Program-made: the position numbers and the translations under genes
Notes under the pieces: model-generated
Told to the model about the DNA's origin: nothing
Database searches by the model: none
What the model saw: only the letters and a program-made list of their open reading frames with translations
Shown: piece by piece, positions 7,449 to 36,138 of the stretch
Layout: each line of letters starts with the position of its first letter
How positions within the stretch are numbered: the stretch's first letter is position 1
DNA from: an uncultured Kiritimatiellota bacterium
GTDB taxonomy: Bacteria > Verrucomicrobiota > Kiritimatiellia > RFP12 > DVOR01
Reading direction: 5' to 3'
Length of the DNA stretch: 64,000 bases
NCBI GenBank assembly: GCA_944389565.1
Contig: CALXMV010000001.1
Coordinates: forward strand, 51,924 to 115,923

Positions 7449-8173
7449 CGCGCCGCGACCTGATCCGTTTCCTGCGCGGCCTGCGCGACGGCCTGCCCAT
7501 CGGCGCGGGGTATTTCGCCGTCAGCTTCGCCTTTGGCATCCAGGCGCGCGAGGTCGGCCTCTCCGCCTTTCAGACCTTCGTCCTCTCCGGCAGCAACCTC
7601 ACCAGCGCGGGGCAGTTTGCGGGGCTTCGGATCATCCAGGCCGGCGGCGCGCTCGCGGCGATGGCCCTCACCCAGCTGGTCATCAACCTCCGCTATTGCC
7701 TGATGTCCTGCGCGCTCTCCCAGAAACTCGCGCGGGACGTCCCCTTCTGGCATCGCTTTTTCATCGCCTGCGGCGTGACGGACGAGATCTTCGCGGTCGG
7801 TGTCGGAGCACCGGGGCCTCTGCGCCCGGCCTATTTCTATGGCCTCACCGCCATTTCGTGGCCGGGCTGGGTCGCCGGCTCCGTGCTTGGCGTGCTGGCA
7901 GGGGATATCCTGCCCGGCTCCGTCTCCCAGGCGCTGGCCATCGCCCTCTATGCCATGTTCGTCGCCATCGTCGTCCCTGCGGCGAAGGCGGATCGGCGGG
8001 TTTTGGCCGTCAGCCTGGCGGCCGTGGCGCTCTCCGTGCTGGGGCAGGCGCTGCCGCTCTTCGGGCCGCGCCATGCGGGGATGCTCATCGTGATCGTCAC
8101 GGTGGTTGTCGCCGGCGTCGCGGCGTTCCTCTTCCCTGTGGGGGAGGCTTCCGGGAAGGGGGGCGAGCCATGA
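7445..8173 (+). CDS. azlC: AzlC family branched-chain amino acid permease
   Basis: GLPIGAGYFAVSFAFGIQAREVGLSAFQTFVLSGSNLTSAGQFAG...LVINLRYCLMSCAL is the AzlC pattern. It has an ATGA overlap with ribF. Confidence 0.75.
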   Translation: MTRRDLIRFLRGLRDGLPIGAGYFAVSFAFGIQAREVGLSAFQTFVLSGSNLTSAGQFAGLRIIQAGGALAAMALTQLVINLRYCLMSCALSQKLARDVPFWHRFFIACGVTDEIFAVGVGAPGPLRPAYFYGLTAISWPGWVAGSVLGVLAGDILPGSVSQALAIALYAMFVAIVVPAAKADRRVLAVSLAAVALSVLGQALPLFGPRHAGMLIVIVTVVVAGVAAFLFPVGEASGKGGEP

Positions 8174-8478
8174 CGGGGGGGCACGTCTGGCTCTGCGTCG
8201 CCGTCATGGCCGGCGTCACCTACGCCATCCGCCTCCTGCCGCTCATCCTCCTGCGGCACGAGATCCGGAACGTCTGGTTCCGCTCCTTCCTTCATTACGT
8301 CCCCTACGCGACGCTCAGCGCGATGACCATCCCCGCCGCGTTGCTCGACGCCCCCACGCCGCTCGCCGGCGCGGCCGGGCTCCTCGTCGCCGGGGCGTTG
8401 GCCTACCTGGGGCGCAACCTGCTCCTCTCCGCCGCCGCGGCCTCCCTGGCCGTCTGGCTTGTCGGCCTGCTCGCCTGA
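8170..8478 (+). CDS. azlD: AzlD family branched-chain amino acid transport protein
   Basis: A small hydrophobic 102-aa protein (MTGGHVWLCVAVMAGVTYAIRLLPLILL...) translationally coupled (ATGA) to azlC. Confidence 0.7.
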   Translation: MTGGHVWLCVAVMAGVTYAIRLLPLILLRHEIRNVWFRSFLHYVPYATLSAMTIPAALLDAPTPLAGAAGLLVAGALAYLGRNLLLSAAAASLAVWLVGLLA

Positions 8479-8702
8479 GCGAAAAAAGGGACCTCGCTCG
8501 GCATGACGCCGAGGAGGCCGCCTTGGCCGCCGCACAACCCTGCGTCCAGACACAGATGGGCGGCCGAGAAGGCCCCCACACGAACCCTCTCACTTTTATA
8601 TACGCAGCCACATGCCGAAAAATGACACGGGACGGCAAAAAAAATCCCATCCCCCGCAAGACGGCCGGATGGTGGGGGCGTCCCGCCCGCGTGCGCGTTT
8701 TA

Positions 8703-8720: not shown

Positions 8721-9392
8721 ATGATCAAACGCATTGGCATCATCGGCTCGGGCCGGTTCGGGGAGGCGCTTGTGCAGGCTCTGGCCGCGCAGGGCGCCGA
8801 GGTCGTGCTCATGGACACCGACCGCGGGAAGATCCAGGAGCTCTCCGACTACGTGACGAAGGCGATCGAGGGCGACGCCGCCAACATCCACGCCTTGGAG
8901 GAGGCCGGGTTCGCCAGCTGTGACACGGTGGTGGTGGCCATCGGCGAGAACGTCGAGGGCAGCATCATGGCCACGGTCAACTGCAAGGACCTCGGCGTGC
9001 GCACGGTGGTCGCCAAGGCCTCCACCGAGGCCCATGGCCGCGTCCTCCGCCGCGTGGGCGCCGACGTGGTGATCTTCCCCAACCGCGACCGCGCCCAGCG
9101 TCTCGCCCGCAGCCTCCTGACCGTCAGCCAGGTGGATCTCTTCGAGATCGCCGACGGTCTCTGCGCGGCCGAGGTGCCCACCCCCGACGTCCTGGCGGGG
9201 AAGACCTTGGCCGAGGCGGACGTGCGCCGCGCCTTCGACGTGACGGTGCTGGCGATCCGCCGGTTGGACGATGTGGACCCCGCCGCGCCGCGCCGTCTGC
9301 TCATCCCGCAGGCCGACACCCCCATCCGCGGCGACGACCATTTGCTTATCTGCGGCGCGTCGGACAAAATCGACGATTTCGCGCAGGCGTGA
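8721..9392 (+). CDS. trkA: TrkA/KtrA-family potassium transporter NAD-binding subunit
   Basis: IGIIGSGRFGEALVQALAAQGAEVVLMD is the Rossmann/TrkA-N motif and a TrkA-C-like C-terminus is present. Confidence 0.75.
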   Translation: MIKRIGIIGSGRFGEALVQALAAQGAEVVLMDTDRGKIQELSDYVTKAIEGDAANIHALEEAGFASCDTVVVAIGENVEGSIMATVNCKDLGVRTVVAKASTEAHGRVLRRVGADVVIFPNRDRAQRLARSLLTVSQVDLFEIADGLCAAEVPTPDVLAGKTLAEADVRRAFDVTVLAIRRLDDVDPAAPRRLLIPQADTPIRGDDHLLICGASDKIDDFAQA

Positions 9393-9935: not shown

Positions 9936-10965
9936 CATGAAAAGCGAAGTTCTCTCCCTGCCCGGGGCGATGGCCGCCTCGCCCCTCGCCTGCCTCCTGC
10001 TCGACAAGGCCATCAAGCGCGCCCGCGCCGAGCGCGTCGCCCCCCGCGAGGTCGTCATCTCCGACCAACGCCTCCCCGACGCCCGCCTCCGCAACCGCCT
10101 CATCGCCGAGGCCGCCCTCAACGGTCTCGCCTGCCGCTTCGGCTCCGTGCCCGCCGGCGACACCCCCGACGTCTTCTTCCTTGGCGACCGCCCCCTCTCC
10201 CTCCGCCTCCCCCCCGGCCTGAACGACTGGCACGCCCACACCCAATTCGCCTACTGCGGCCGCGGCATCGACCTGACGGACGCCGCGCGCCTCGCCCTCC
10301 ACCTGGGCGTGGAGACCCAGGGCTTCTCCGAGCACGCCTTCGCCCTCTACTTCCCCTCCGACGCGCTCAAGTTCCGCTGGCAGGGCGACCCAGACGCCGT
10401 GGAGCGCGTCTGGGCCACCCCCGGCCGCGGGCGCATGGCCGCCTACCGCGCCTGGGTGCGCGACCTGCGCCCCCTCCTGGGCCCGCGCGTCCGCTTCGGG
10501 CTGGAGGTGGATCTCTTCGGCGGCGGCCGCTTCTGCCTCGCCCCCGAGGATCTGGAGGGCTGGGACTATCTGATCGGCGCCATCCATGCCGTCGAAGGCC
10601 TTTCCCCCGGCGCCACGCAGGCGCAGGCCGAGGCCGCCTGGATGCGCGACGTCGAGCGCCTCCTCCAACAGCCCATCGCCATCCTCGCCCATCCCCTGCG
10701 TTTCTTCCCGTGGGATGGCCGCCCCACGCCCACCCACCTCTACCGCCCGTTGGCGCGGATGCTTGCCCAGGCGCGCGTCGCCGCCGAGATCAACCACCAC
10801 AAAAACCCCGTCGACCCCGCCTTCTTCCGCATCTGCCTGGAGGAGGGCGTGCGGATCTCCCTTGGCACCGACGCCCACGTCACCCGTTCCGCCGGCGACC
10901 TCCTCCCGCACCTCGAGACCCTCCGTCAGCTCGCCCTCTCCCCCTCCGCCACGCTCCATCCCTAA
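9936..10965 (+). CDS. PHP-domain phosphoesterase (histidinol-phosphatase-like)
   Basis: It contains HAHTQFAYCGRG, GTDAH and other His-rich metal-binding motifs typical of the PHP family. The stop codon lies within a palindromic repeat. Confidence 0.6.
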
Positions 10966-11040: not shown

Positions 11041-12265
11041 CTGTTTTCGGGGTCAGAGAGAGGGTGGGGAGGGGGTTGGAGCCGTCGAGGGCGTAGGTGG
11101 TGGCGGTGAGGGTGGTGGGGGTGGCGGCGATGAGGGTGACGGTGGCGGAGGATTCCTTGGGGCCGCCGCCGATGAGGGTGGGGTAGGGGCGGCCGGGAGC
11201 GGGCGGGAGGTGGGAGGCGCGGTGGTCGTGGGCGGCGAGGAGGAGGTCGATTTTGCCCTCGGCGAGGGCGGGGGCGAGGTGTTGGCGGAGGCGGGTGGGG
11301 CCGTGCTTGGCGTCGGAGCGCGGGTCGCCGTTGGTGGGGGGGATGTGGCAGAGGGCGAGGCGTTTCTTGCCGGTCCGCCAAGCGGGGGAACGGACGAGCG
11401 CTTGGGCCCAGGCGCCCTCCTGGGCGATGAGTGCCTCGCATTCCAGGAGGCCGCAGTATTCGCGGTGGGAGTCGACCTTGTCCTCGCCGCTGTCGAGGAT
11501 GAGCAGGCTGAGGGGGCCGAGGTCGAAGGCGGCGTGATAGGCGTCGGTGCCGGCGTAAGGGGCGAAGGCCTCGCGGAGGCGGCGTGCCATGACGCCGCGG
11601 TATTCGTGGTTGCCGCGGGCGAAGAGAAGGGGGATGCCCTGCGCGGTGAGGTCGGCCATGGGGCCGAGGAGGGCTTTGCGGAGGCCCTCGGGGCCGGGCA
11701 CGTTCCCGGCGCAGTCGCCGTTGAGCGCGACGAATGCGGGTTTGGCGGCGGCCACGGCGGGGATGGCGAGGAGTTTGGGGATGAGGGCGGTGTTGGCGTG
11801 GAGGTCGTTGAGCACGGCGAAGGTGAGGGCGCCGTCGGGGCGGATAAGGGCGGGGACGGTGACGATGCCGCCGGCGGATCGCTCGCCGAAACGGGTCCAC
11901 CAAGGATCCATCGTGGTGGCGACGCTTTCGACCTCGAAGCGGAGGGGTTTGGCGAAGTCGACGCCACGGAGGGTGACGAGGTGGTCGGGGCGGTTGGAGG
12001 CGACGAGCCCGTCGACGACGCGGCGGGCGCGGGGCCAGCGGTCGCGCGGGAGGTCGGGGTCTTGGGTCCAGCGGACGGTGCCGGCGCTGGGGGTGGCGGT
12101 GCGCCAGCAGATGGCGAGGGCGTCGCCGCCGACGATCTGGGCCGTGGGGGGCTGGACGAAGGCTGCTTGGTTTTGGGCGGGGGCTTTCTTGGCGGTGGCC
12201 TCGGCGGAGAAGGCGGGGAGGGTGGCGGCGGCGCCGAGGGTGGCGAGGAAGGTGCGGCGGTTCAT
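11036..12265 (-). CDS. Secreted metallophosphoesterase (calcineurin-like / purple acid phosphatase-like) with Tat signal
   Basis: MNRRTFLATLGAAATLPAFS is a twin-arginine signal. GDCAGN, GNHEY and AHDH are metallophosphatase motifs. Confidence 0.7.
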   Translation of the reverse strand: MNRRTFLATLGAAATLPAFSAEATAKKAPAQNQAAFVQPPTAQIVGGDALAICWRTATPSAGTVRWTQDPDLPRDRWPRARRVVDGLVASNRPDHLVTLRGVDFAKPLRFEVESVATTMDPWWTRFGERSAGGIVTVPALIRPDGALTFAVLNDLHANTALIPKLLAIPAVAAAKPAFVALNGDCAGNVPGPEGLRKALLGPMADLTAQGIPLLFARGNHEYRGVMARRLREAFAPYAGTDAYHAAFDLGPLSLLILDSGEDKVDSHREYCGLLECEALIAQEGAWAQALVRSPAWRTGKKRLALCHIPPTNGDPRSDAKHGPTRLRQHLAPALAEGKIDLLLAAHDHRASHLPPAPGRPYPTLIGGGPKESSATVTLIAATPTTLTATTYALDGSNPLPTLSLTPKTA

Positions 12266-14934: not shown

Positions 14935-14963
14935 AAAAAGCCCCCGGATCGGGGGCTTTTTGG
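14935..14963 (-). terminator. Rho-independent terminator (bidirectional hairpin) downstream of pnp
   Basis: The plus-strand sequence aaaaaaGCCCCCGgatCGGGGGCtttttgggggg shows a GC stem flanked by an A-run and a T-run. Confidence 0.7.
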
Positions 14964-22339: not shown

Positions 22340-23599
<1,260 letters not shown>

Positions 23600-23685: not shown

Positions 23686-23720
23686 AAAAAAGAAGCCCCC
23701 CGGCTTCCCGGGGGGCTTCC
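23686..23720 (-). terminator. Rho-independent terminator downstream of the PEP-CTERM gene
   Basis: aaaaaaGAAGCCCCCCGGcttcCCGGGGGGCTTC is a strong GC hairpin with an A-run on the plus strand (a T-run on the minus strand). Confidence 0.7.
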
Positions 23721-23750
23721 TGAAGGTCGCGTCGTGTCAGCCCGCCTGGA

Positions 23751-24495
23751 TCAGGCCGCGCGGCGGCGGAGGGCGAGGCCCGCCGCGCCGAGGGCCAGGA
23801 GCGCCAGCGCCGTCGGCTCGGGCACGCCGCCCGGATCGGGGTCGGGCCCCGCGAGCAGATCCTCGTAGGATTCGCCCTCGAAGACGTAGAGGTCCTGCGT
23901 GATGTTGCCGGCCGTCTGGTTGTTGTAGAGGTTCATGTTGTCGGGATTTTCCCCATCGAAGCCCTGCTTGCCGTAGACGATCTCCTCGAAGGTCCCATCC
24001 GCCGTGAGCGTCCCGTAGAGCACGCCGTTGAGGTAGAAGCCGAGATTACCCCCCCGTATGGGAGATGACGAACTCGTAGGAGACGGGGCCGTCGGCGCTC
24101 CCTTGGAAGGTGACGTCGGGTGCGTCGGTCCGGGTCGCGAGATCGGCGTTTCCGGTAACGGTGGCAAAGCCAATCGTCCCGCTGTTCTTGCCATCTGCGT
24201 TCACGTTGAAGCGCGAGGCGGTGCCGCTCGTGTTCGAGGTGGTGACGCCGATGATGGAGGGATACTTCTGGCCGCCGTTGCTGTACGCGTTGAGCGGGCC
24301 GTTGACGGTGACGATGCAGGCGATGGTCCAGCTGTCCGAGCCCAGGGAGACCTCGGTGCCGTTGGCCGAGATGTGCCCGGCGGAGGTGATGCCCGTCTTG
24401 GAATAATCCGCGTCGAGCGTCCCCCAGTCGAGGGAGGCGGCCTGAAGCAGGCCGACGGCGAATGCGGCAAAGGCCGTGAAAAGCGATTTACGCAT
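23751..24495 (-). pseudogene. PEP-CTERM domain secreted protein, interrupted by a frameshift in a G7 (plus-strand C7, 24049..24055) homopolymer
   Basis: ORF 24046..24495 carries the signal peptide plus the N-terminal part, ending ...ISHTGG*. ORF 23751..24194 in another frame continues GNLGFYLNG...[25 protein letters not shown], the PEP-CTERM anchor. Removing one G restores a single reading frame. Confidence 0.7.
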
Positions 24496-24689
24496 GACAA
24501 ATCCTTTCGTTGTTTATGGGCATTCATCGGCGCGACAACACTAAACTAACATGTTTCACGCACGGCCGCACGAAAAATAGGGTGAAGCGGGGCGCCTTCC
24601 GCTTGGTTCGCCCCGTTGCCGGCACCTCCTCCTTCCGACCGTGCGGGTGCGCCGAAGGCGCCCGGTTTGCAGGGGGCGTGCGCGTTTTG

Positions 24690-24721: not shown

Positions 24722-27409
24722 ATGAAGCGACTCTTGGCTTTGTTGGCGTCCCTGACCGTCGTGGCCACCGCCTCGGCGGAGCGGGAGTACATCGTCTACG
24801 ACCTGACGGCCCGTGAGGCGACGGCGGTCGAGAACCCCGACCCGAAGGACAAACGGTACCATGAGGGGACGGAGATGCTCTTCGTCCGCGACACCGCCGT
24901 CGGCGAGGCCTTCTACATCGGCGTCTGGGAGGTGACGTGCGCCCAGGCCGTCCACCTGGGGTGGGCCACGGCCAATGCGGGCGTGGGGCAGGCGTACGTC
25001 ACGCGGGGCGACGCCGCCACCTACGACTTCGCCCAGAACCATTCGCTCTCCGGTTTCACGGGGCTGAGCCTGCCGACCTTGGGGCAATGGAAGGCCTACG
25101 CGGAGGACGTCCAGCCGCAAGACTCGGTGAACGTGTTTCGCGGAAACTACAATTACGGGATTCGGACCATCGCGGAGTGGTACGGCAAGTACCAGGCGGA
25201 CGTCGAGCCCAACGCCTTTGGCGTCTACGACATCTTCGGCAACGCGGCGGAGTACGCCTCCACCGACGGCCTCTTCCACGGCGGCTACGCGCAGAGCTCG
25301 TGCGACTACTCCGACTCCCACGACGCCGTCGCGTACGCGGGGAAGACGGCCTCGGCCCTTTCCGCCCTCGGCGATTTCCTCGGTGCGCGGCTTGTCTACA
25401 CGCCGCCGGCGGAGCGCACCTACACCGTGACGGTCACGCTTGACGGCGAGCCCGTGGCGGGGTGGGACGCCTCGCACGGCTACAAGGCCGGCGAGCGGGT
25501 GACGCTCCCCGAGCCGACCCTCGCGGCCTTCCACCGCCTCGCCGAGCCGACCGTCACGCCCGAGGGGCTCGAGATCGACGCGGATCGCTCCTTCCTCATG
25601 CCGGCGGAGGATGTCACGGTCGCCTACGCGTCCGTCCCTTACGCCATCGTCCAGGCCGTCGACGCCACCGTCTCCGACCCCACGCCTGCCGCGGGGGCGA
25701 CCGTCACCCTCACCGCCGCCGCCTCGGAGCCGTGGCGCACCCTCGCCGGCTGGGAGGCCTCCGAGGGCGCCACCGCCCCCGAGGGCGCGCCCGCCACCTT
25801 CGAGTTCCGAATCCCCGAGACGATCCAAGGCGGCGAGACGTACACCTTCACCGCCCGCTTCGTCACCGCCCCACGCGTCCTGGTCTACGGCGGCACCGTC
25901 GCGGTCGGTGAGGGCGAGGATCTCGGCGACGGCTTCTACTCCGTCGGCGCGGCACTCACCCTCACCGCCCCGGCCACCCTCAATGGCGGCGAGTACCGTT
26001 TCGAGGCCTGGGTCGACGCCACCGGCGAGCCGATCCCCACCCGTGCCACCTGCCAGGTCACCGCCGGCGCCAACGGCACCGTCGCCACCTACGCCGCCAC
26101 CTATGCCCTCGACGAGGAGGGCGTCCAGGGTGCCGTCATCGACATCGCCTCCACGACGGACGAGGAGGGCGCCCCCGCCGCCTGGCCGCTCTTCGGCTCC
26201 CTGCCCGACGAACGGCAGACCTCCGTGCCCGACCCTTACGGCAACACCTATCGCCATTTTTCCTATCACGATGCCGGCCCGCTCGCCAGCTTCTCCCTCG
26301 ACGATGGCACCCTGACCTATCCCGAGGCGGCCTCCGAGGGCGGCGTCCCCACCGTCGACACCACCGACGAGGGGCTGACCCGGAAACTCCAACTCCGCCG
26401 CGTGGCGCCCGCCGAGGGCAAGGACTTCTACCTCGCCGTCCATGAGGTGACCATCGGCCAAATGGCGCGTGCCTACAAGCGCACCGGCACCACGCTGCAC
26501 TATGATTCCGGCGATGCCTGCGTCGCCTGCACCGCCAATGAGTTCTACCTGCCGGGCTATGAGGATCCATGGCCCACCAAGGTCACGGCGACGATCGCCA
26601 AGGCATTGGGGCGCGACTTCCGCCAGCCCACCAAGGCGGAGATCCGCGCCATCGGCGATTCGGCGCGCGAGACCAACGCGAACGCCGGCCTCGGCGCCGA
26701 GCGCGATGAGGAGATCACGCGGAAGATGGTCGTCTGCCATCCCTCCGCCATCGCCAAACCCGCCTCGAGGGAGGCGGATCCCTACGGTTTCTACGACCTC
26801 TGGGGCAATGGCTATGAGTACGCCGGCGATGGCACCGTCTTCGGCGGCTGTTACGGGAGCCAGTTCGGCGAATGCAATCTCGACACGGTCTTTAATCATC
26901 CCTCCAACACGCTTCTTGCCGCGCGGCCGTTGCTGGAGGTGGAGACGCCCGTGACGCTTCGCTTGGAGGATGAGGACGGGCGGACGCTCCAGGGCATCGC
27001 CGGCAAGCGCCTCTTCCCCGAGGGCGTGGCCACGCCCGAACGCGCGGGCCATGCCTTCGCCGGCTGGACGCTCGGCGGCGAGGCCATCCCCCTCGATCAC
27101 GTGCTCCGGGCCGAGGACGACGGCAAGGTCCTCGCCGCCACCTGGACGCCAAACGCCACGGCCATCAAGGTCATCTACCACGACGGCCTCTCCGGCCCGG
27201 AGACCGTCTATCCCGGCATGGCCACCCGCATCTACGCCCCCGCGGGCAAGACCATCGCCACCCTCACCGTCCGGGGCACCGAGAGCGCCGTGTGGGACCC
27301 CGAGACCCAGACCCTCACCATCCCCGCCGACGCCCCCGACACCCTCACGGTCAACGCCACCTTCGCCGAGCCCGCCCCCACGCCCGGCTTCCGCCTCATC
27401 CTGCGCTGA
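24722..27409 (+). CDS. Secreted protein with two formylglycine-generating-enzyme (FGE/SUMF1)-like domains and Listeria-Bacteroides-repeat-like beta domains
   Basis: It has the signal peptide MKRLLALLASLTVVATASA. Domain 1 is FYIGVWEVTCAQA...FGVYDIFGNAAEYA and domain 2 is KDFYLAVHEVTIGQMARAY...YGFYDLWGNGYEYAGDG, both with the FGE-sulfatase fold pattern. HAFAGWTLGGEAIPLDHVL is a Flg_new-like repeat. The listed ORF start at 24641 (GTG) is probably upstream of the true start. Confidence 0.65.
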   Translation: MKRLLALLASLTVVATASAEREYIVYDLTAREATAVENPDPKDKRYHEGTEMLFVRDTAVGEAFYIGVWEVTCAQAVHLGWATANAGVGQAYVTRGDAATYDFAQNHSLSGFTGLSLPTLGQWKAYAEDVQPQDSVNVFRGNYNYGIRTIAEWYGKYQADVEPNAFGVYDIFGNAAEYASTDGLFHGGYAQSSCDYSDSHDAVAYAGKTASALSALGDFLGARLVYTPPAERTYTVTVTLDGEPVAGWDASHGYKAGERVTLPEPTLAAFHRLAEPTVTPEGLEIDADRSFLMPAEDVTVAYASVPYAIVQAVDATVSDPTPAAGATVTLTAAASEPWRTLAGWEASEGATAPEGAPATFEFRIPETIQGGETYTFTARFVTAPRVLVYGGTVAVGEGEDLGDGFYSVGAALTLTAPATLNGGEYRFEAWVDATGEPIPTRATCQVTAGANGTVATYAATYALDEEGVQGAVIDIASTTDEEGAPAAWPLFGSLPDERQTSVPDPYGNTYRHFSYHDAGPLASFSLDDGTLTYPEAASEGGVPTVDTTDEGLTRKLQLRRVAPAEGKDFYLAVHEVTIGQMARAYKRTGTTLHYDSGDACVACTANEFYLPGYEDPWPTKVTATIAKALGRDFRQPTKAEIRAIGDSARETNANAGLGAERDEEITRKMVVCHPSAIAKPASREADPYGFYDLWGNGYEYAGDGTVFGGCYGSQFGECNLDTVFNHPSNTLLAARPLLEVETPVTLRLEDEDGRTLQGIAGKRLFPEGVATPERAGHAFAGWTLGGEAIPLDHVLRAEDDGKVLAATWTPNATAIKVIYHDGLSGPETVYPGMATRIYAPAGKTIATLTVRGTESAVWDPETQTLTIPADAPDTLTVNATFAEPAPTPGFRLILR

Positions 27410-27453: not shown

Positions 27454-27573
27454 GAACCCTCCCGACTTTCACCCCGAACCCTCCCGACTTCCGGGTCAGA
27501 CCCTTAAGGGTTTCGCCCCAGACCCTCCCGACTTCCGGGTCAGACCCTTAAGGGTTTCGCCCCAAACCCTCCC
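27454..27573. repeat. Tandem palindromic repeat block (unit about 44 bp, GACCCTCCCGACTTCCGGGTCAGACCCTTAAGGGTTTCGCCCCA, two full copies plus partial copies)
   Basis: Seen directly. It contains the perfect palindrome CCCTTAAGGG and the GACCC...GGGTC inverted repeat, and shares GGGTTTCGCCCCAAACCCT with the 10.96-kb repeat. Confidence 0.8.
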
Positions 27574-27600: not shown

Positions 27601-30600
27601 ATGAGACTGTGGCGCACGGGTCGGTTGCTGACGTGGGCGATGGCGTTTGCCGTCGTGGGCGGCGCGCGCGGCGTTGGGTTGGCGCCGGGGGTGTGCCCGA
27701 CGAATCTGACTTGGGCGGTGGAGGCCTATGCGGGGGCGGATTGGGGCGCCTGGGAGGCGCGTGTGGCCGCGGACGCGGAGGGGCTGGCGGCGGTGGCACG
27801 CGAGATCCCACCCACGCCGCCGGGGATGGTGACCTACATCGAGCAAACGGCCGAGGAGTTGCCGGAGGCGTTGGCGGCGTGCACGAACGCGGCGCCAAGC
27901 GTGTTGGTGGGGGGCGTCCGGGCGTGGGATTTCCGGGTGGCGGAGCGGGTGGCCGCGGATGGCGCGCGGGCGTTTCTGACGTTTGCGGGGGAGACGGTCT
28001 TCCATGCGCAGGGGGTGCCGGCCGACTTCGACGCGGAGGCATGGGCGTTGGCGGCCTACACGGAGGATGGGCGCCTGCCGGAGACGGTGGCCGGCGACGC
28101 GGCGCGGCGGGAGGAGTGGTTCGCCATGCGGGGGCGGGAACGGCTGGGCCTGGCGTATACCTTCGTGGAGCGGGGGCGGCTGGAGGATTACGTGGCGGCG
28201 CGCGAGGCGGAGGCCGCGGCGCGTGAGGAGGCCTGGGAGGAGGAGGGCGCGGCGGGGGCGTGGGGCTTCGGGGTGCGGGAGATGGAGGTGGGCGCCGGGG
28301 AGATGGCGTTCGGCTTCTGCGACCCGGCGGGGTCGGATCTGTACGTGTTGGGGCGGAAGAGCCTGGAGGCGTGGGACGATTGGGCGCTCATCGGCAAAGT
28401 CGAGGCGGAGGGGCGGCGATGGGTGGCCTTCGGGTTGCCGATGGACATGCATTTCTGGAAGTTCCTGGATGCCTCGCTGGACAGCGACGGGGACGGCATC
28501 GCGGACGGTCTGGAGGTGGGGTGGTTCGGGACGGACCCCCTGCGGGCGGACACGGCCGGAAGCCTGATCGACGACTGGCGGAAAATCTACGTGTATGGCA
28601 TGGACGCGCGGGTGGCGGACACCGACGGGGACGGTCTGCCGGATGGCTGGGAGCTGCTGAACGGCCTCGACCCTTACGCGGCGGACGCGGAGGGGGACCC
28701 TGACGGGGACGGGATCGCCAACCGTCTGGAATTGGCCTATGGGACCGACCCGCAACGGGCGGATTCGGACGGGGACGGTTTGGGCGACCGTGAGGAGACG
28801 GGGTGGGCGGAGGTGACCCATGGCGTGGGGCCGGTGGCGGCGGGCACGGGGCGTGTCGCGCTCGCGGAGGGCGTGGCGGTGGGCCTGCCCTCCCAAATGC
28901 GTCTGGGCGGCCGCGCCTACGCGCGCGTCGAGGCCTCGCGGTCGGGCGTGGTGCGGCTGCTCGGCGAGTTCCCGATCGCCATCCGGGTCTTCCCGGAGGG
29001 GATGGCGTGGCCGGAGGCGTTCCGCGCGGGAATCTTCGCGTGGGAGGCGGAGGAGGGTTTCGTCATCGCCTTCGAGAACGTCGGTCTGCCGGGGGAGCCC
29101 GCGACGACGCTGGGGCGCGCGCAGGTCATCCTTCGGGCGGATTCCGGGGGCGTGGAGGTGCGCTACACGACCCTGCAGGGTGGCCTCGCCGCGCTCACGG
29201 GGGTCGGCGCGAGGCGGCCGGACGGCCGTTTTGGCGAACTGCTCGACCCCGGCACGGTGACCTTGGGCGATTGCGTGACCTACCGCTTCGGCGCGGGCTC
29301 CGACCCGACGCTCCCGGACACCGACGGCGACGGGGTGGAGGATGGCGCGGAGGTCGCGGCGGGCCGGTCGGCCCCAGGCCCGGACGACGACTTCGACGGT
29401 CTGCCCGATCGGTGGGAGCGGCGCTTCGGCCTTGACCCCCTCTCCGCCTCGGGCGCGGATGGCGCGGCGGGCGACCCCGACGGCGACGGGCTCCCGAACC
29501 TGCGCGAGCACGCCCTGGGCACCGACCCGACCGCCGTGGATTCCGACGGCGACGGGCTGGGCGACGCCGCGGAGGTGGGCGCCGTCACGCGCCGCACGCA
29601 CGTCGCCCCCATGGATACCTCCGCGGGGCGGGTGGTGGCGGTCTATGACAGGGAGGCCACCGCCGGCTATGTGTTTTTCGACCTGCCCTTCCCCGTGCGG
29701 GTGGGCGGGGCGGACTATCCGCGCGTGGGGCTCAACATCGACGGCGTGCTCACGTTCGTGCCAGCCGGCGAGACCGCGGTGCGCTTCCCCTCGGCACGGC
29801 GGGCGTTGGGCGAGACGCCCCTGGACACGCGTTACCCCTCCCTCGCGCTCTACTGGGCGGATCTGATGGTGGCGGAGGCCTTCCGCTCGGAACTGCGCGT
29901 CGTGGAGATGCCGGGCGAGACGGTCGTCGTCGAGTGCCTGAACTTGGCCAAGCAGGGCGGTTTCGCCTTCCTGGCCTGGCCGGAGCCCGCGACCTCTTTG
30001 GCGCGTATCCAGGTCATCATCCCGCGCGACGCGGACGCCGCCGGCATCGAGGTGCGCTACACGACCCTGCAGGGCGGTTTCGACGGCGCTGAGGCCACCC
30101 TCGGGGCGCAGTTCGGCACGCAGGCGATCGACCTGGCGCACAATCTGCTCGGCGCCGTCGCCATCGGCGACGCCATCACCTACCACCCCGGCACCGGCAC
30201 GGATCCCGCACGCGCCGACACCGACGGCGACGGGTTGGGCGACGCCGCCGAGTTGCGGCTGGGCCTCGACCCGAAGAACCCGGACCTGGATGGCGACGGC
30301 TTGGCGGATGGCTGGGAGGTCGCCTGGGGGCTTGACCCGCACGTGCCCGATGACCATGCCGCCGATTGGGACGGCGACGGCATCTCCAATTACGTGGAGG
30401 CCCAGTGGGGCACGAACCCGCGCGCGGCGGATTCCGATGGCGACGGCGTCGGCGACGCGGCCGAGATCGCGCAGGGGAGCGACCCCGCCGACGCCTCGGA
30501 CGGGGGCATGGCGGGGCGTTACGTCAAGGTCGCCCTCACGTTCGGCGACCCCAGCGCGAGCGCCTCCGAGAAATACGCCGTCGAGGTGTGCCAGACCGTG

Positions 30601-32682
30601 GGCGAGGGCAGCGGGGAGGCCGCGCCCAAGCGCCTGGAGAACCTGATCTCCGACGGCGCGGAGACGCGCGAGCTCCTCCTCCGCCCCGACGCGGCCTACA
30701 CGGTGACGCTCCGGCACCTCTCCTCGAAGGCCGCGGAGGCCGACCACGACTACACGCTCACCGTCCGCTGCCCGGTCGTCGCCGCGGGCACGCAGGTCGT
30801 CATCGAGGATCCGGAGTCCCTGCTCGGCACGTATGCCACGGGCGGCTCCGCCACGCCCGACACCTACACGGGCAAGGCCGTCACGCTCTATTGCCTCACG
30901 CCGACCCTGACCCCGGATCATGACCGCGACCTCACGTTCGGCCCCATCGACGAGGCGTACGTCGCGGCGGGCACCCCCCTGCCGGTGTGGGTCAATTCGG
31001 ATCATGACCATGAGGACCCCGAGGGCGTCAACGACGGTTCGGAGGCCTCGCAACCCCTGCCCGACAACTTCATTGAGGGGATCCTTTCAGGCGCCTTCGA
31101 TTGCGACGACCTAACCGTGAACGGGCAGTCCGACCTGGAGGACTTCTTCCCCGTGCGCCTGCGGTTGGGCGCGGCGCTGACGGCTTTCCTGGCGGCACAC
31201 CCGCAGGCCACCGCGCACTTGGAGACCGGCCCATGGGAGGGGGCGCTGCACGCGTTGTGGTGCCATGACGGCACGGAATCCGTCCAACGCTTCTTCGACG
31301 CGTCCGCGGGTGGCGGCCGCTACGGCGAGGAAGGGCGGGAGGCCCGTTGGGAGGCGGAGGTCGCCGAGCTGACGGACGGGCTGTTCGGGGACAGGACGCG
31401 CATCCCCCCGCAGGTGCTCGCCACCGCCCAGGCCTCGGAGCGCGGCGACGTGCCGCTCTTCGTCGAGGCGTGCGCCGAGGGCACGCTGACGCTCCGCCTG
31501 CGCGTGCGGGAGGAGTCGGTGGAGGCGCTGGGCGAGGAGGGGAGGATCCTGACGGAATGCGCCTTCGACAGCCGTTTCGTCGAGGCGTGCTATGCCGTGC
31601 TGAATCTGCGCGAGGACACGCCGCAACGTGTCGACCCCGCCGTCGAACGCGCTGAAAAGCCCGACGTGACCGTCTGCCTCGTGCATGGGTACAACGTCTC
31701 GGAGACCGACGCGGCCGAGTGGTTCAACGCCGTCTACAAGCGCCTCTGGCGCTCCGGCTCGACAGCCCGCTTCTGCGGCGTCGTCTGGCGCGGCGACGAC
31801 CAAGGCGTCATCCTGCCGGATTACTATCGGAACGTCGCGAACGCCTTCGATGCCGCGGGGGCGTTCGCCACGGCGCTGGATGCGATCCCCGGGCGCAAGG
31901 TCGTCCTGGCGCACAGCCTCGGCAATATGCTCGTCTCCGCCGCGCTGCAGGATCACGACGCCCCCATCGACGCCTACTTCATGCTCAATTCCGCCGTCCC
32001 CGCCGAAGCCTACGACCCCGCACCGTCCTCCCCGGGCTTCTCCGTCGCCGGCGTCCCCGCCGGCCTCATCCACGATGCGTGGCGCAACTATGACCCCAGG
32101 AGTTGGTCCGCGCTCTGGCATCGGCATTTCCTCCCGCATGAGGGCTTCGCGCCGACCGCCGCCGACGCCGCCCGCGCCACCCTCACCTGGAAGGGCCGCT
32201 TCGAGGACGTGCTCACCGGCCGGGGCGCGAAGGTCTTCCACGTCTACTCGCGCGGCGCGGGCGAGACGAGCGGCGACGAGGTCTTCGAGCTCCTGGGCAC
32301 GACCCCCTCCCCGCTGAGCGGTTTCGACTGGACCGACCTCAAGACCAAAGGCCGTCACGCGTGGCAGAAGCAGGAATGCTGGAAAGGCCGCCGCGAGGCA
32401 AGCGCCCTCGCCCTCGCGGCCTCCGAGGAGATGGGATGGGGCTTCGATGGTGCCGCCGCCGACGTCTCCGCGGAAGCCTCCGCCTCGTTGGGCGAGGCCG
32501 CCTACCGCCAAGCACCCCTCTTCTGCCGCCAGCCCCCCGAAATCCTCGGCGACGACCCCAACGCCATCCTCGACCTCCGCAACACCCTCCTCGCCCGCGC
32601 CATCCCCGCACTCTCCAACGCCGCCGGAAAAACGGATCTTCCAGGCCTTGCTGAGGGCGATCAATTCGACTGTCAAACCTAG
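27601..32682 (+). CDS. Giant secreted Ca-binding protein with multiple thrombospondin type-3-like (DxDxDGxxDxxE) repeats, two ~280-aa repeated modules, and a C-terminal alpha/beta-hydrolase (lipase/esterase-like) domain
   Basis: It has the signal peptide MRLWRTGRLLTWAMAFAVVGGARG. TSP3-like repeats include DTDGDGLPDGWE, DPDGDGIANRLE and DSDGDGLGD. The module ...IQVI(L/I)...GIEVRYTTLQGG occurs twice. The C-terminus has VCLVHGY (oxyanion HG) and VVLAHSLGNML (GxSxG nucleophile elbow). The start could alternatively be 27592 or 27574. Confidence 0.75.
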   Translation: MRLWRTGRLLTWAMAFAVVGGARGVGLAPGVCPTNLTWAVEAYAGADWGAWEARVAADAEGLAAVAREIPPTPPGMVTYIEQTAEELPEALAACTNAAPSVLVGGVRAWDFRVAERVAADGARAFLTFAGETVFHAQGVPADFDAEAWALAAYTEDGRLPETVAGDAARREEWFAMRGRERLGLAYTFVERGRLEDYVAAREAEAAAREEAWEEEGAAGAWGFGVREMEVGAGEMAFGFCDPAGSDLYVLGRKSLEAWDDWALIGKVEAEGRRWVAFGLPMDMHFWKFLDASLDSDGDGIADGLEVGWFGTDPLRADTAGSLIDDWRKIYVYGMDARVADTDGDGLPDGWELLNGLDPYAADAEGDPDGDGIANRLELAYGTDPQRADSDGDGLGDREETGWAEVTHGVGPVAAGTGRVALAEGVAVGLPSQMRLGGRAYARVEASRSGVVRLLGEFPIAIRVFPEGMAWPEAFRAGIFAWEAEEGFVIAFENVGLPGEPATTLGRAQVILRADSGGVEVRYTTLQGGLAALTGVGARRPDGRFGELLDPGTVTLGDCVTYRFGAGSDPTLPDTDGDGVEDGAEVAAGRSAPGPDDDFDGLPDRWERRFGLDPLSASGADGAAGDPDGDGLPNLREHALGTDPTAVDSDGDGLGDAAEVGAVTRRTHVAPMDTSAGRVVAVYDREATAGYVFFDLPFPVRVGGADYPRVGLNIDGVLTFVPAGETAVRFPSARRALGETPLDTRYPSLALYWADLMVAEAFRSELRVVEMPGETVVVECLNLAKQGGFAFLAWPEPATSLARIQVIIPRDADAAGIEVRYTTLQGGFDGAEATLGAQFGTQAIDLAHNLLGAVAIGDAITYHPGTGTDPARADTDGDGLGDAAELRLGLDPKNPDLDGDGLADGWEVAWGLDPHVPDDHAADWDGDGISNYVEAQWGTNPRAADSDGDGVGDAAEIAQGSDPADASDGGMAGRYVKVALTFGDPSASASEKYAVEVCQTVGEGSGEAAPKRLENLISDGAETRELLLRPDAAYTVTLRHLSSKAAEADHDYTLTVRCPVVAAGTQVVIEDPESLLGTYATGGSATPDTYTGKAVTLYCLTPTLTPDHDRDLTFGPIDEAYVAAGTPLPVWVNSDHDHEDPEGVNDGSEASQPLPDNFIEGILSGAFDCDDLTVNGQSDLEDFFPVRLRLGAALTAFLAAHPQATAHLETGPWEGALHALWCHDGTESVQRFFDASAGGGRYGEEGREARWEAEVAELTDGLFGDRTRIPPQVLATAQASERGDVPLFVEACAEGTLTLRLRVREESVEALGEEGRILTECAFDSRFVEACYAVLNLREDTPQRVDPAVERAEKPDVTVCLVHGYNVSETDAAEWFNAVYKRLWRSGSTARFCGVVWRGDDQGVILPDYYRNVANAFDAAGAFATALDAIPGRKVVLAHSLGNMLVSAALQDHDAPIDAYFMLNSAVPAEAYDPAPSSPGFSVAGVPAGLIHDAWRNYDPRSWSALWHRHFLPHEGFAPTAADAARATLTWKGRFEDVLTGRGAKVFHVYSRGAGETSGDEVFELLGTTPSPLSGFDWTDLKTKGRHAWQKQECWKGRREASALALAASEEMGWGFDGAAADVSAEASASLGEAAYRQAPLFCRQPPEILGDDPNAILDLRNTLLARAIPALSNAAGKTDLPGLAEGDQFDCQT

Positions 32683-32822
32683 ATTGTGAATGATGCGAAG
32701 CGTCCGTGGGTTCAGCGTTCAGGAGAGTTGAAAGAGCGATGGCTACATTCAGATGTGAAGGATGTGGCTTATCCATTAACGCTCCCACTTTTTCAGTTCA
32801 TGATTCAGAAAGGAAAGTTGAA

Positions 32823-33941
32823 ATGAGAATGTTTGTGGCTTGCCTCTCGCTGTCGGTAGCCGTGGTACTTTACGCGGAGACGCCTTATGAGCGTAATGAA
32901 CGTTATCAAGGTGCGCAGGCAACCCTTCAATTGACCGTTCGGGATGACCGAGGGGAGCCCGTTGAGGATGCTCGTGTGGAGGCTTCTTTTTGGAACCCGT
33001 TTCAGAATCCGACACGTGTGCAAATTGGCCATACCGATGATGCCGGGACAGTCTCTTTTACGGGAGAGGGTTACTCGGACACGCATTATTATGTTGGAAA
33101 AGATGGATATTATGGAAGTCGCGGAAGGGCGGTGCTCGAAAAACCTGACAAGGACCCCGAGCATTTTTGGGAACGGCTCAGGTGGGAGCCGGTGATTCGT
33201 GACATTACGCTCAAGAAAAAGCGGAATCCCATCGAAGGATTCTTGCATATAGGCATCGAACTCAAAACACCGGCGCTCAATCGTCCCGTGTGGTTTGACC
33301 TTGAGGCCTTCGATTGGTTGCCTCCTTATGGCGAGGGGGTTCACCGTGATGTCGCCATAACCTTGCAGACCGCACGCGTGCAAATAAGGGGGTATGAAGC
33401 CGACAGAATCGCCAAGGCGTGTTTTGCTTTTCCCAATCCGCATGATGGCGCACAGCGTTGCGATGCGGATATCCAATCCTATCACGAAGTGGGATATCAT
33501 GTGAATACGGCCAAGCCATTCGTCAACCCCATGATTCTTGAGGCAGATTTTACGAGAAGTCACGACAAATTTCTTCCTTACACAAGCTATCTGACATTTC
33601 GTGTCAGAAGCAAATGCGATGAGAATGGGAACCTCGTCTCCGCACAGTATGGCTTCATGTATCGCTTTTCGGTTACGGAGGAATGCTTCACAGCCTCTCT
33701 GCTTTTCCTCAATCCCACGCCGAATGACACGAACATCGAATACGATCTCAAGCGGAGCCTGGCGAAATCGGATGCCGATCGCAAGTGGGAGGCTAGGCAG
33801 AAATGTCTTGAGAAACGGTTTGAGGAGGAGCGGAAAATGCTGGAGGAGATGGGTGTGGAGAACTTCATCAGGGCGATACGGGCGAAACGGAGCGGCGCTT
33901 CCGGCACGCCCAAGCAGGAAGCGAAGGGAGCGGCGGAATGA
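32823..33941 (+). CDS. Secreted paralog 1 of a three-member tandem family (signal peptide, N-terminal transthyretin/CarbopepD_reg-like beta-sandwich, variable middle, conserved charged C-terminal tail)
   Basis: It starts MRMFVACLSLSVAVVLYA/ETPY and carries an aaaggaaag RBS. It is low in GC (about 50-55%). The N-terminal ~150 aa are identical to paralog 3 and the C-terminal ~70 aa are shared by all three. Confidence 0.7.
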   Translation: MRMFVACLSLSVAVVLYAETPYERNERYQGAQATLQLTVRDDRGEPVEDARVEASFWNPFQNPTRVQIGHTDDAGTVSFTGEGYSDTHYYVGKDGYYGSRGRAVLEKPDKDPEHFWERLRWEPVIRDITLKKKRNPIEGFLHIGIELKTPALNRPVWFDLEAFDWLPPYGEGVHRDVAITLQTARVQIRGYEADRIAKACFAFPNPHDGAQRCDADIQSYHEVGYHVNTAKPFVNPMILEADFTRSHDKFLPYTSYLTFRVRSKCDENGNLVSAQYGFMYRFSVTEECFTASLLFLNPTPNDTNIEYDLKRSLAKSDADRKWEARQKCLEKRFEEERKMLEEMGVENFIRAIRAKRSGASGTPKQEAKGAAE

Positions 33942-35035
33942 GAACGTTTGTGGCTTGCCTCTCGCTGTCGGTGGCCGTTTCCCTTTACGCGGAGACGCCT
34001 TATGAGCGTAATGAACGTTATCAAGGTGCGCAGGCAACCCTCCAGCTGACGGTGCGTGACGACCGAGGGGTGCCAGTGGAAGGGGCCTATGTGCAAGCGC
34101 ATTTTTGGCAGCCGACCTCGGATGCGGCCGCTGTAGGCGCATACACCGACGAAAAAGGGTACGCGAACGTCGTGGGTAATGGGTATACAGATGTCCGATA
34201 TTCTGTGAGCAAAGATGGGTATTACAGGACTCGCGGGAGTGCGCGATTGTCGCTTCCCGAAAATGATCCAACGCCTTTTTGGAAAGATTATCAGTGGGCA
34301 CCCATCATAAGAGAAACCGTGATTAGGAAAGTCCGCCGCCCGGTCTCTGGGGTGCTTCATCTTGGCGAATGGCTGTCGCCTCCCCAGACAGATGTGCCTA
34401 TCGGGTTGGATTTGCAACTTATGGATTGGATGCCGCCCCACGGTCGGGGAAGCCATTGTGATGTCGTGGTCAAGTTTGTGACGCGGACACTGCGTGACAA
34501 TGGGCACGCATGGGAGGTTGTCGATTCAATCGCATTGGAGTTCCCTAATGAGCACGATGGTGTTTTGCTTTGTGATGCGGCACCCTATTCGGCATTCATC
34601 ACTCCCTATCATGTTCCTGAGAACGGAGATTTCGTGGCGTGTTACAGACTGACAGCATCGGAGAAGGAGGGAACCTTTTTTCTGCCAGATACGCAAACAC
34701 TCCTTTTCCGGATTCGGAGCAAAGAGGGTGCAGGCGGTGCAATCGTCTCTGCTCATTATGGCTCAATTTTTCGTTGTGTCATGACGGGTGGAATGGTTTC
34801 CATGGATGTTTTCCTCAATCCCACGCCGAATGACACGAACATCGAATACGACCCCAAGCGGAGTCTGGCGAAGTCGTATGCCGACCGCAGGTGGGAGGCC
34901 ACGCAGAAGCGTCTTGAGGAGGAGCGGAAAATGCTTGAGGAGATGGGCGTGGAGAACTTCATCAGGGCGGTGCGGGCGAAACGGAGCGGCGCTTCCGGCA
35001 CGCCCAAGCAGGAAGCGAAGGGAGCGGCGCAATGA
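33938..35035 (+). CDS. Secreted paralog 2 of the tandem family (divergent after residue ~45, conserved C-terminal tail)
   Basis: It starts MRTFVACLSLSVAVSLYAETPYERNERYQGAQATLQLTVRDDRG and ends ...FLNPTPNDTNIEYDPKRSLAKSYADRRWEATQKRLEEERKMLEEMGVENFIRAVRAKRSGASGTPKQEAKGAAQ. Its start has an ATGA overlap with paralog 1. Confidence 0.7.
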   Translation: MRTFVACLSLSVAVSLYAETPYERNERYQGAQATLQLTVRDDRGVPVEGAYVQAHFWQPTSDAAAVGAYTDEKGYANVVGNGYTDVRYSVSKDGYYRTRGSARLSLPENDPTPFWKDYQWAPIIRETVIRKVRRPVSGVLHLGEWLSPPQTDVPIGLDLQLMDWMPPHGRGSHCDVVVKFVTRTLRDNGHAWEVVDSIALEFPNEHDGVLLCDAAPYSAFITPYHVPENGDFVACYRLTASEKEGTFFLPDTQTLLFRIRSKEGAGGAIVSAHYGSIFRCVMTGGMVSMDVFLNPTPNDTNIEYDPKRSLAKSYADRRWEATQKRLEEERKMLEEMGVENFIRAVRAKRSGASGTPKQEAKGAAQ

Positions 35036-36138
35036 GAACGTTTGTGGCTTGCCTCTCGCTGTCGGTAGCAGTGTCCCTTTACGCGGAGACGCCTTATGAG
35101 CGTAATGAACGCTATCAAGGCGCGCAGGCGACCCTGCAATTGACCGTTCGGGATGACCGAGGGGAGCCCGTTGAGGATGCTCGTGTGGAGGCTTCTTTTT
35201 GGAACCCGTTTCAGAATCCGACACGTGTGCAAATTGGCCATACCGATGATGCCGGGACAGTCTCTTTTACGGGAGAGGGTTACTCGGACACGCATTATTA
35301 TGTTGGAAAAGATGGATATTATGGAAGTCGCGGAAGGGCGGTGCTCGAAAAACCTGACAAGGACCCCGTGCATTTTTGGGAACGGCTCAGGTGGGAGCCG
35401 GTAATCCGTGATGTCACGCTCAAAAAAATACGACACCCAATATCAGGGTTTTTGCATCACAATATTCCACTCACACCTCCTTGTCTCAATCAACCAATAG
35501 GATTGGATTTTGAGCGTTGGGACTGGTTGCCGCCTTATGGGATGGGGAAGCATGAAGATGTCAAAATCACGTTCGAGGCACAACGCGTCGTCCAACCCAA
35601 CTTTTCTAAAGACTTGGTTATTGCCATCCATTTCGCGTTTCCCAATCCAAATGATGGTATGCAAATCTGCCCTGCGGATACTTTTTCAACTTTCGTTCCC
35701 ACTTATCACGTTGATGCCCAAAAACCATTTATGAATACTGTTTCTTTTTATCGGCAAAAACCTTCAGAACAATATCAGTTTCTGGCTCACACCTCTTATC
35801 TGGCTTTTCGGGTTCGTAGTCAGAAAGGTGATGCGGGGATGTTCGTGGCGCATTATGGATTTATATATCAACTTCTTGATATCTCAGATCAAGAGTTTTG
35901 CCCGACTATTGTCTTTTTCAATCCCACGCCGAATGACACGAACATCGAATACGACCCCAAGCGGAGTCTGGCGAAGTCGTATGCCGACCGCAGGTGGGAG
36001 GCCACGCAGAAGCGTCTTGAGGAGGAGCGGAAAATGCTGGAGGAGATCGGCGTGGAGAACTTCATCAGGGCGATACGGGCGAAACGGAGCGGCGCTTCCG
36101 GCACGCCCAAGCAGGAAGCGAAGGGAGCGGCGGAATGA
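35032..36138 (+). CDS. Secreted paralog 3 of the tandem family (N-terminus identical to paralog 1, unique very low-GC middle, conserved C-terminal tail)
   Basis: It has ATGA overlaps with paralog 2 upstream and with the small protein downstream. The middle region is about 43-48% GC. Confidence 0.7.
   Translation: MRTFVACLSLSVAVSLYAETPYERNERYQGAQATLQLTVRDDRGEPVEDARVEASFWNPFQNPTRVQIGHTDDAGTVSFTGEGYSDTHYYVGKDGYYGSRGRAVLEKPDKDPVHFWERLRWEPVIRDVTLKKIRHPISGFLHHNIPLTPPCLNQPIGLDFERWDWLPPYGMGKHEDVKITFEAQRVVQPNFSKDLVIAIHFAFPNPNDGMQICPADTFSTFVPTYHVDAQKPFMNTVSFYRQKPSEQYQFLAHTSYLAFRVRSQKGDAGMFVAHYGFIYQLLDISDQEFCPTIVFFNPTPNDTNIEYDPKRSLAKSYADRRWEATQKRLEEERKMLEEIGVENFIRAIRAKRSGASGTPKQEAKGAAE

Follow-up and report, generated by a model that had tools for sequence, protein, structure and literature searches.

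A poly-G tract of variable length in a PEP-CTERM protein gene of an uncultured Kiritimatiellota bacterium, a candidate phase-variable locus

In the genome of an uncultured Kiritimatiellota bacterium (GenBank assembly GCA_944389565.1, contig CALXMV010000001.1, positions 51,924 to 115,923), a gene for a PEP-CTERM surface protein is split into two reading frames at a run of seven guanines. The question raised by this locus is whether the gene is misread in the assembly, has decayed, or was caught in one state of an on/off switch. We analyzed the 64,000 nucleotides of this stretch, hereafter the window, and compared the gene with its counterparts in closely related strains. The tract was found to be 7, 8 or 9 nucleotides long in strains that are otherwise almost identical, and only the longest form keeps the gene in frame, suggesting that this is a candidate phase-variable locus.

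The split gene and its tract in related strains

The gene lies on the minus strand at 23751..24495. The plus strand contains seven cytosines at 24049-24055, within GATTACCCCCCCGTATG, and these are read as seven guanines (G7) on the coding strand. The first open reading frame, ORF1 (24495..24046, minus strand), encodes the N-terminal 149 amino acids, and this truncated product of the G7 allele ends in YEFVISHTGG, with a TAA (24046-24048) immediately after it. The remainder of the gene (23751..24050), which is untranslated in the G7 allele, is reached by skipping one base; it begins with GNLGFYLNG, ends with RRRAA and the stop codon at 23751-23753, has no further lesions, and its frame is +1 relative to ORF1. 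Removal of one G from the tract generated a single ORF of 247 amino acids, and addition of two generated one of 248. The exact product of ORF1 was found in 13 contigs of independent assemblies. The repaired product ends in a PEP-CTERM sorting domain (23754..23825) with a PEP motif, a transmembrane helix and a basic cluster, and it scored above the curated cutoffs of both PF07589 (E = 6.4e-6, 26.5 bits vs a cutoff of 20.7, residues 224-245) and TIGR02595 (E = 1.8e-5, 25.2 bits vs a cutoff of 16). Moreover, a search of 5.8 billion proteins yielded 149 homologues, and almost all of them were intact, with 220-248 amino acids and a PEP-CTERM tail. These results bear out the initial annotation, which had described a PEP-CTERM gene split by a homopolymer frameshift; the continuation in another frame was also as described, and calling that frame -1, where we count +1 relative to ORF1, is a matter of labelling.

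Orthologous loci were gathered by exact-protein look-ups and cluster listings, and 22 of them, 96-100% identical, were obtained from independent metagenome assemblies made in several projects and available through the European Nucleotide Archive (ENA) and Logan, giving 23 sequences with the window. A scan of genome contigs and Joint Genome Institute (JGI) metagenome contigs for the flanks of the tract separated by a variable gap gave no match. At the protein level, the best match (P0001) was intact, 93% identical and read HTGGGN, and the second (P0002) was a product of 186 amino acids with an out-of-frame tail directly past HTGG. When the DNA was aligned, the tract was G7 in the window, G9 in P0001 and G8 in P0002, and the rest of the sequence was about 96% identical. 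Over the whole set, G7 was present in 12 sequences (the window, L003-L011, L015 and L016), G8 in seven (L002 and L017-L022), and G9 in four (L001 and L012-L014). The G7 allele encodes 149 amino acids, G8 encodes 186, with a 38-amino-acid out-of-frame tail, and G9 encodes 248; all the intact alleles were G9, which reads Thr-Gly-Gly-Gly-Asn at this place. No alleles or products corresponding to G6, G10 or G11 were found in the protein clusters, and G6 was absent from the 23 sequences. The natural ON state is G9 and not G6; the in-frame G6 state put forward previously does give a continuous 247-amino-acid frame on paper, but it is not the form that the strains carry. Since only G9 is in frame and the tract is 7, 8 or 9 long in close strains, the G7 of the window is a genuine OFF allele and no sequencing error.

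The flanking sequences over 1,570 bp sorted the loci into eight groups. Haplotype A comprised the window and nine further assemblies, with 0-1 differences in the 1570 bp, and the tract was always G7. These assemblies came from three ONAT22-1 samples, each with an ENA and a Logan assembly, and from BRZ_SI and BRZ_SM, and represent at least 5 samples, 2 projects and different assemblers. A look at the literature for the habitat of the samples, by accession, gave no relevant paper, and a further search gave general papers on gut Kiritimatiellae only. Tract length was likewise constant in haplotype H (G8 in all 4 assemblies) and in haplotype C (G9 in 2 assemblies). In haplotypes E, F and G, which have 12-24 differences per 1,570 bp, it was G7, G8 and G9/G8, respectively. 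The locus is, in this manner, a simple repeat within an ORF whose unit changes shift the frame, and both ON and OFF lengths were found in close relatives in which the gene is otherwise intact.

As controls, other homopolymers were followed in ten loci spanning the first 1-15 kb of the window, seven of which belong to assemblies that had also supplied a focal G7, G8 or G9 call. A coding G7 at 8175-8181 (codons 2-4 of azlD) was G7 in 10/10 loci, another at 11336-11342 was G7 in 4/4, and the C7 at 10209-10215 was either C7 or interrupted by substitutions, with its length constant. Within this control region, length variation was limited to intergenic tracts, namely A8/A9 at 8637 and G6/G4 at 14962. 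The protein clusters of three control genes contained full-length members only, and for the focal gene 8 of the 11 members were fragments. When phase changes in the G+C content at third codon positions (GC3) were inspected, the focal tract was the sole homopolymer of at least 6 nucleotides in the window with such a change inside a gene, and the changes at other runs fell on gene boundaries as given by GC3-based gene calls. The junction between azlC and azlD (8158-8181) was inspected directly and is an ATGA overlap at 8170. A generalised homopolymer sequencing error was rejected on these grounds, i.e., the other phase changes at gene boundaries and the stable control tracts.

We then compared the tract with the sequence around it. 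In about 6.7 kb compared over nine haplotypes, the focal tract contained the sole frameshifting coding indel; the remaining coding indels, of 3 and 6 nt, kept the frame, and indels of 1 nt were otherwise intergenic only. Neighbour-joining trees of three nested regions, combined with parsimony, required at least 4-5 changes of tract length among the nine haplotypes. Between L001 (G9) and L018 (G8), the alignment of about 2,060 columns that spans the gene showed no difference apart from the tract, and farther upstream these two had 23 substitutions between them, so they are distinct strains and no re-assembly of one sample. The flanks were mosaic, indicating recombination among strains, and this cannot account for a difference confined to the tract such as that between L001 and L018. 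The repeat has thus mutated much faster than its surroundings, with no data artefact to explain it, and the tract is hypermutable.

Switching or decay

The tract length has changed repeatedly and the gene is otherwise intact; therefore, the locus behaves as a simple-sequence-repeat (SSR) on/off switch. In the proposed mechanism, slipped-strand mispairing during replication would add or remove a single G. At G9, or any length of 3n, the full 248-amino-acid protein would be made, with signal peptide, beta-sandwich and PEP-CTERM anchor. At G7, translation would stop at the TAA right past the tract, leaving a 149-amino-acid fragment with no anchor, and at G8 it would run into the 38-amino-acid out-of-frame tail and end after 186 amino acids. 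According to the structural model described below, the G7 and G8 products would lose the C-terminal half of the beta-sandwich together with the anchor. We consider it probable that the locus is a genuine recurrent on/off polymorphism generated by slipped-strand events, a candidate for phase variation, and that the window carries it in the OFF state. Slippage as the mutational mechanism is what the one-nucleotide steps within the run suggest. A stronger form of this proposal, in which the locus would be a true contingency locus, its tract having arisen in this lineage and been retained there, and a lectin-like surface protein sorted by an exosortase would be switched on and off stochastically and reversibly in a gut Kiritimatiellota bacterium, is put forward tentatively, as plausible and still short of likely; the reversibility on ecological time scales and the adaptive value of switching that it entails are presumed from the comparison of strains.

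Evidence for a switch rather than for decay came from the OFF alleles themselves. When the tracts of haplotypes A, B, E, F, L018 and H were set to G9, a complete ORF with no further lesion was obtained in each case, in H up to the limit of the contig. The ratio of nonsynonymous to synonymous polymorphism (pN/pS, Nei-Gojobori) came to 0.56 on each side of the tract, upstream as well as downstream, and no haplotype differed in the PEP-CTERM segment. Codons with amino acid changes accounted for 23 of the 38 segregating, vs a neutral expectation of about 74% (one-sided binomial p = 0.048), and this codon test points weakly to constraint on the gene.

Several observations weigh against an on/off switch. 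The pN/pS of 0.56 indicates mild constraint only, and the p value of 0.048 is marginal. Haplotype A was G7 in 10/10 sequences, so that this clone looks stably OFF at the consensus level; bringing it back in frame needs a change of +2 or -1, and its uniformity argues against very fast switching at the G7 length. About one third of the haplotypes (C, D and L001 of 9) were in frame, as neutral drift in length predicts. With 7-9 nucleotides, the tract is short compared with those of classical phase-variable loci. Recombination among strains could have spread a few old alleles, lowering the count of independent events. The tract lengths compared are consensus calls from assemblies. Finally, 16 proteins of the window, predicted multi-transmembrane ones included, were scanned against Pfam, and none matched an exosortase. 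The initial annotation had suggested looking for this enzyme elsewhere in the genome, and the search reported here covers these 16 proteins.

The main rival for the clone in the window is a pseudogene fixed in the lineage, i.e., a dispensable gene whose poly-G is its weakest point and has been hit by random loss, so that the G7 clone is a dead end. This agrees with the G7 found in every haplotype A sequence from several samples, with the neutral proportion of in-frame haplotypes, and with the distance of G7 from the observed ON length, which is two insertions. Also, the intergenic A8 at 8637 and the G5/6 near 27454 vary among strains, as expected if length varies wherever it is tolerated. However, a second lesion was present in 0/6 OFF haplotypes; the downstream half, although untranslated, keeps the same pN/pS as the upstream one, with the PEP-CTERM segment unchanged. 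Three haplotypes scattered among the OFF ones in the tree still carry intact G9 alleles. In addition, the tract was uninterrupted in 23/23 sequences and the control C7 was interrupted in some strains, a contrast that is statistically weak. We had considered this lack of interruptions as evidence of selection, and it was dropped because it is not significant at 3.7% synonymous divergence. Collectively, a fixed pseudogene is in our view rather unlikely, and the polymorphism among near-identical strains favors the phase-variable option over it, with reversibility within a clone being the part of that option that is presumed.

Programmed recoding would leave the gene on, the G7 allele being read to full length through a +1 frameshift at GGG-UAA or through transcriptional slippage. 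The tract is indeed followed by a stop (GGG GGG UAA U), a 'shifty stop' loosely like that of prfB, and RNA polymerase is able to slip on homopolymers. Where such slippage in transcription is efficient, however, the runs described are mostly A/T and at least 9 long. The orthologues have G8, which would need the opposite shift, or G9, which needs none, so there is no conserved recoding site; a spaced upstream stimulator similar to a Shine-Dalgarno sequence, as in prfB, was not present, and no Rfam element was found at the locus. With neither the shift site nor the frame conserved and no Rfam match, prfB-like frameshifting or an RNA element was rejected, and we regard recoding as very improbable. 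A sequencing or assembly error in a gene that is truly in frame and intact, one of the options first raised, is scarcely credible: homopolymers are a known error mode and Logan contig L011 stops just past the tract, but for each haplotype the tract length came out the same whichever sample, project or assembler was independently used, with the same G7 in nine further assemblies, the tracts at 8175, 11336 and 10209 are constant in length in the same assemblies, and no other homopolymer frameshift was found in any gene of the 64-kb window.

The encoded protein and the rarity of its tract

The protein starts with a predicted Sec signal peptide, MRKSLFTAFAAFAVGLLQA (24439..24495), with cleavage before ASLDW. 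It was judged by reading the sequence and resembles a standard signal peptide, with a basic N-terminus, a hydrophobic core and an LQA motif; it is conserved in the family, whose alignment shows no change at Q18, A19 or W24. The alignment of 40 sequences showed conservation of the signal peptide, of the beta-strand motifs YEFVIS and LNFYLNG.LYG, and of the PEP-CTERM domain, in which neither P-E-P nor the helix after it varies. Sorting of the protein by an exosortase would be expected from this C-terminal domain. The window protein showed no significant Pfam match beyond PEP-CTERM, and all the named NCBIfam PEP-CTERM subfamilies scored below cutoff for it; some of the homologues have precomputed matches to Laminin_G_3 (PF13385). 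In species-representative genomes, homologous loci were found in metagenome-assembled genomes (MAGs) of Kiritimatiellota, Lentisphaeraceae and Ca. Spyradenecus, several of them of gut type. The family also has short members (P0015, P0016, P0033 and others); these represent N- or C-terminal pieces of the protein and have no connection with the tract loop.

The AlphaFold2 model of an intact allele is a beta-sandwich (predicted local distance difference test score, pLDDT, 79.7; predicted template modeling score, pTM, 0.77). The top Foldseek matches in the PDB were lectin-like jelly rolls, with E of about 1e-5 but a template modeling (TM) score of only 0.3-0.4, and included the clostridial neurotoxin HCN, the sialic-acid-binding CBM40, a trans-sialidase lectin domain, neurexin LNS and PL7 lyases. 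From the predicted fold, this putative ConA-like/LamG beta-sandwich is likely a glycan- or ligand-binding module. In the model, the tract encodes the four-residue turn T147-G150, between strands 138-146 and 151-156, with G9 supplying the Gly-Gly-Gly of this beta-hairpin turn. This loop is the most length-variable one in the family alignment, so in-frame changes in its length should be tolerated.

Long G/C runs are avoided in the coding sequences of this genome region. At 69% GC, G/C7 runs are no rarity in the raw sequence, with six in the 64 kb, but comparison with synonymous-codon shuffles gave 28 coding G/C runs of at least 6 nucleotides against 65 expected, 5 against 22.3 for runs of at least 7 (about 4-fold depletion), 0 against 8.3 for at least 8, and 0 against 2.6 for at least 9. 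Based on codon usage, the probability of ACG GGG GGG GGN given T-G-G-G is about 0.04. In the closest outgroup homologue (49% identity) the same loop is coded GGT GGT, and no homopolymer of 7 or more was found in 14 more distant homologues from MAGs. Poly-G as a family-wide trait was rejected on both counts, and the tract is specific to this lineage.

Surroundings, comparable systems and implications

The gene sits between a guaA-like gene and a divergent pair of genes for very large secreted proteins. A Shine-Dalgarno-like AAAGGA was read from the sequence at 24502..24507 (minus strand), 6 nt 5' of the ATG, and may serve in translation initiation. A predicted intrinsic terminator, with a 14-bp GC-rich hairpin and a U-run, is located at 23686..23721 (minus strand), 30 nt past the stop codon (-30.4 kcal/mol, z = -4.0, 0/200 shuffles as stable); it was missed by a simple scanner and found by folding. 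Together, these two signals suggest that the PEP-CTERM gene is monocistronic and forms a stand-alone transcription unit.

On the downstream side, the GMP-synthase-like (guaA) gene at 22340-23599 (minus strand) has only 419 amino acids; its ATP-pyrophosphatase and C-terminal domains match well, but the glutamine amidotransferase part at its N-terminus is reduced in length and does not reach the Pfam cutoff (PF00117, 20.4 bits vs a cutoff of 22.8). Haplotypes F and G diverge completely from the guaA context about 80 nt past the stop codon of the PEP-CTERM gene (window about 23671), and the L001, L017 and L018 contigs all end 165-177 nt past the gene. As judged by the alignment, this divergence appears to be a structural variant or a junction with a repeat or mobile element. 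On the other side, running divergent to the PEP-CTERM gene, are the genes for a secreted protein of ~890 amino acids (24740-27409, plus strand), with a sub-threshold FGE-sulfatase match only, and for a protein of ~1,700 amino acids (27625-32682, plus strand), with seven bacterial TSP3 repeats and an alpha/beta-hydrolase-like region; this order is kept in all the orthologous loci.

Two of the intergenic tracts with variable length deserve a description of their own. An intergenic C5 tract near 27454, which reads G5 on the minus strand and lies between the ~890-amino-acid gene that ends at 27409 and the TSP3-repeat gene that starts at about 27574, was 5 or 6 long, with a pattern unlike the flank phylogeny, and L001 and L018 differ there too. 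The A8 at 8637-8644 (plus strand), about 80 nt 5' of a trkA-like gene (8721-9392), was A8 or A9 depending on the strain, and the TrkA-like product downstream of it has been called 223, 256 or 289 amino acids long in different assemblies. This A8 could be another case, besides the focal tract, of variable length, here 5' of a gene.

Further into the window, three tandem ORFs of 411, 365 and 368 amino acids (32706-36138, plus strand) showed weak Big_1/CarboxypepD_reg-like matches. The GC3 of this segment is clearly below that of the rest of the window, and it was skipped by the GC3-based gene caller; it may be acquired DNA. Two multi-transmembrane proteins of 670 and 513 amino acids with no Pfam match are encoded at 49441-52984 (plus strand), and directly 3' of this pair, at 53002-56955 (plus strand), is the gene for a 1,317-amino-acid apolipoprotein N-acyltransferase (LNT_N and CN_hydrolase) fused to a long tetratricopeptide repeat (TPR)/YfiO-like region.

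Intragenic poly-G/C contingency loci are known from Neisseria meningitidis hmbR/hpuAB, from Campylobacter jejuni and from tracts of Bordetella pertussis (PMC3786947, PMC8355987, PMC1891110). As in those loci, a G tract here lies within the ORF of a gene for a surface or secreted protein, one-nucleotide changes shift its frame on or off, and tract lengths differ among close strains in which the genes are otherwise intact. Unlike them, the present locus belongs to an uncultured gut-type Kiritimatiellota with about 69% GC, its tract is short (7-9), the evidence is comparative only, and one such locus was found in 64 kb. A closer parallel in base composition is the homopolymer phase variation of the high-GC Mycobacterium tuberculosis, in glpK 7C and others (PMC10334774; bioRxiv 10.1101/717272), which shares a short coding G/C homopolymer (about 7 nt) in a high-GC genome and recurrent homoplastic indels across strain phylogenies; there, the targets are metabolic or regulatory and reversibility was validated in culture, whereas here it is a PEP-CTERM surface protein studied by comparison of strains.

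PEP-CTERM proteins are the substrates of exosortases (Haft et al. 2006, PMC1569441; TIGR02595, PF07589). In Akkermansia, a gut bacterium of the Planctomycetes-Verrucomicrobia-Chlamydiae (PVC) group, 21 PEP-CTERM proteins were counted and long G tracts were suggested as sites of phase variation, and the genome paper treats the two topics separately (PMC3048395). Beyond that paper, none of those listed in the literature searches combined PEP-CTERM, exosortases or Kiritimatiellae with phase variation. The protein described here resembles other PEP-CTERM substrates in that each genome of PVC-group bacteria has many such paralogues, and differs from them in that its passenger is a predicted small ConA-like/LamG jelly roll outside the named NCBIfam subfamilies, with the exosortase looked for in the window only. 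With regard to ConA-like lectin and LamG domains (PF13385, CBM40, clostridial neurotoxin HCN), the predicted beta-sandwich matches and some homologues carry PF13385, but the TM scores are limited to 0.3-0.4 and the window protein itself lacks a significant PF13385 match.

For annotators, the split gene is neither to be 'repaired' nor discarded, and the locus with its internal control tract is a marker for measuring phase variation in existing metagenome reads. If the reading of the locus as a switch is true, this would be a contingency locus detected purely by strain comparison in metagenomes and, within the literature searched, neither a PEP-CTERM protein nor this phylum would have an earlier record of SSR phase variation. 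Kiritimatiellota are abundant and almost uncultured in gut and anoxic habitats, and have many PEP-CTERM surface proteins. A toggled lectin-like protein at their surface would suggest that phages, host immunity or a changing supply of glycan niches act as selective forces, and contingency-locus biology would be extended to commensal PVC bacteria and to exosortase sorting.

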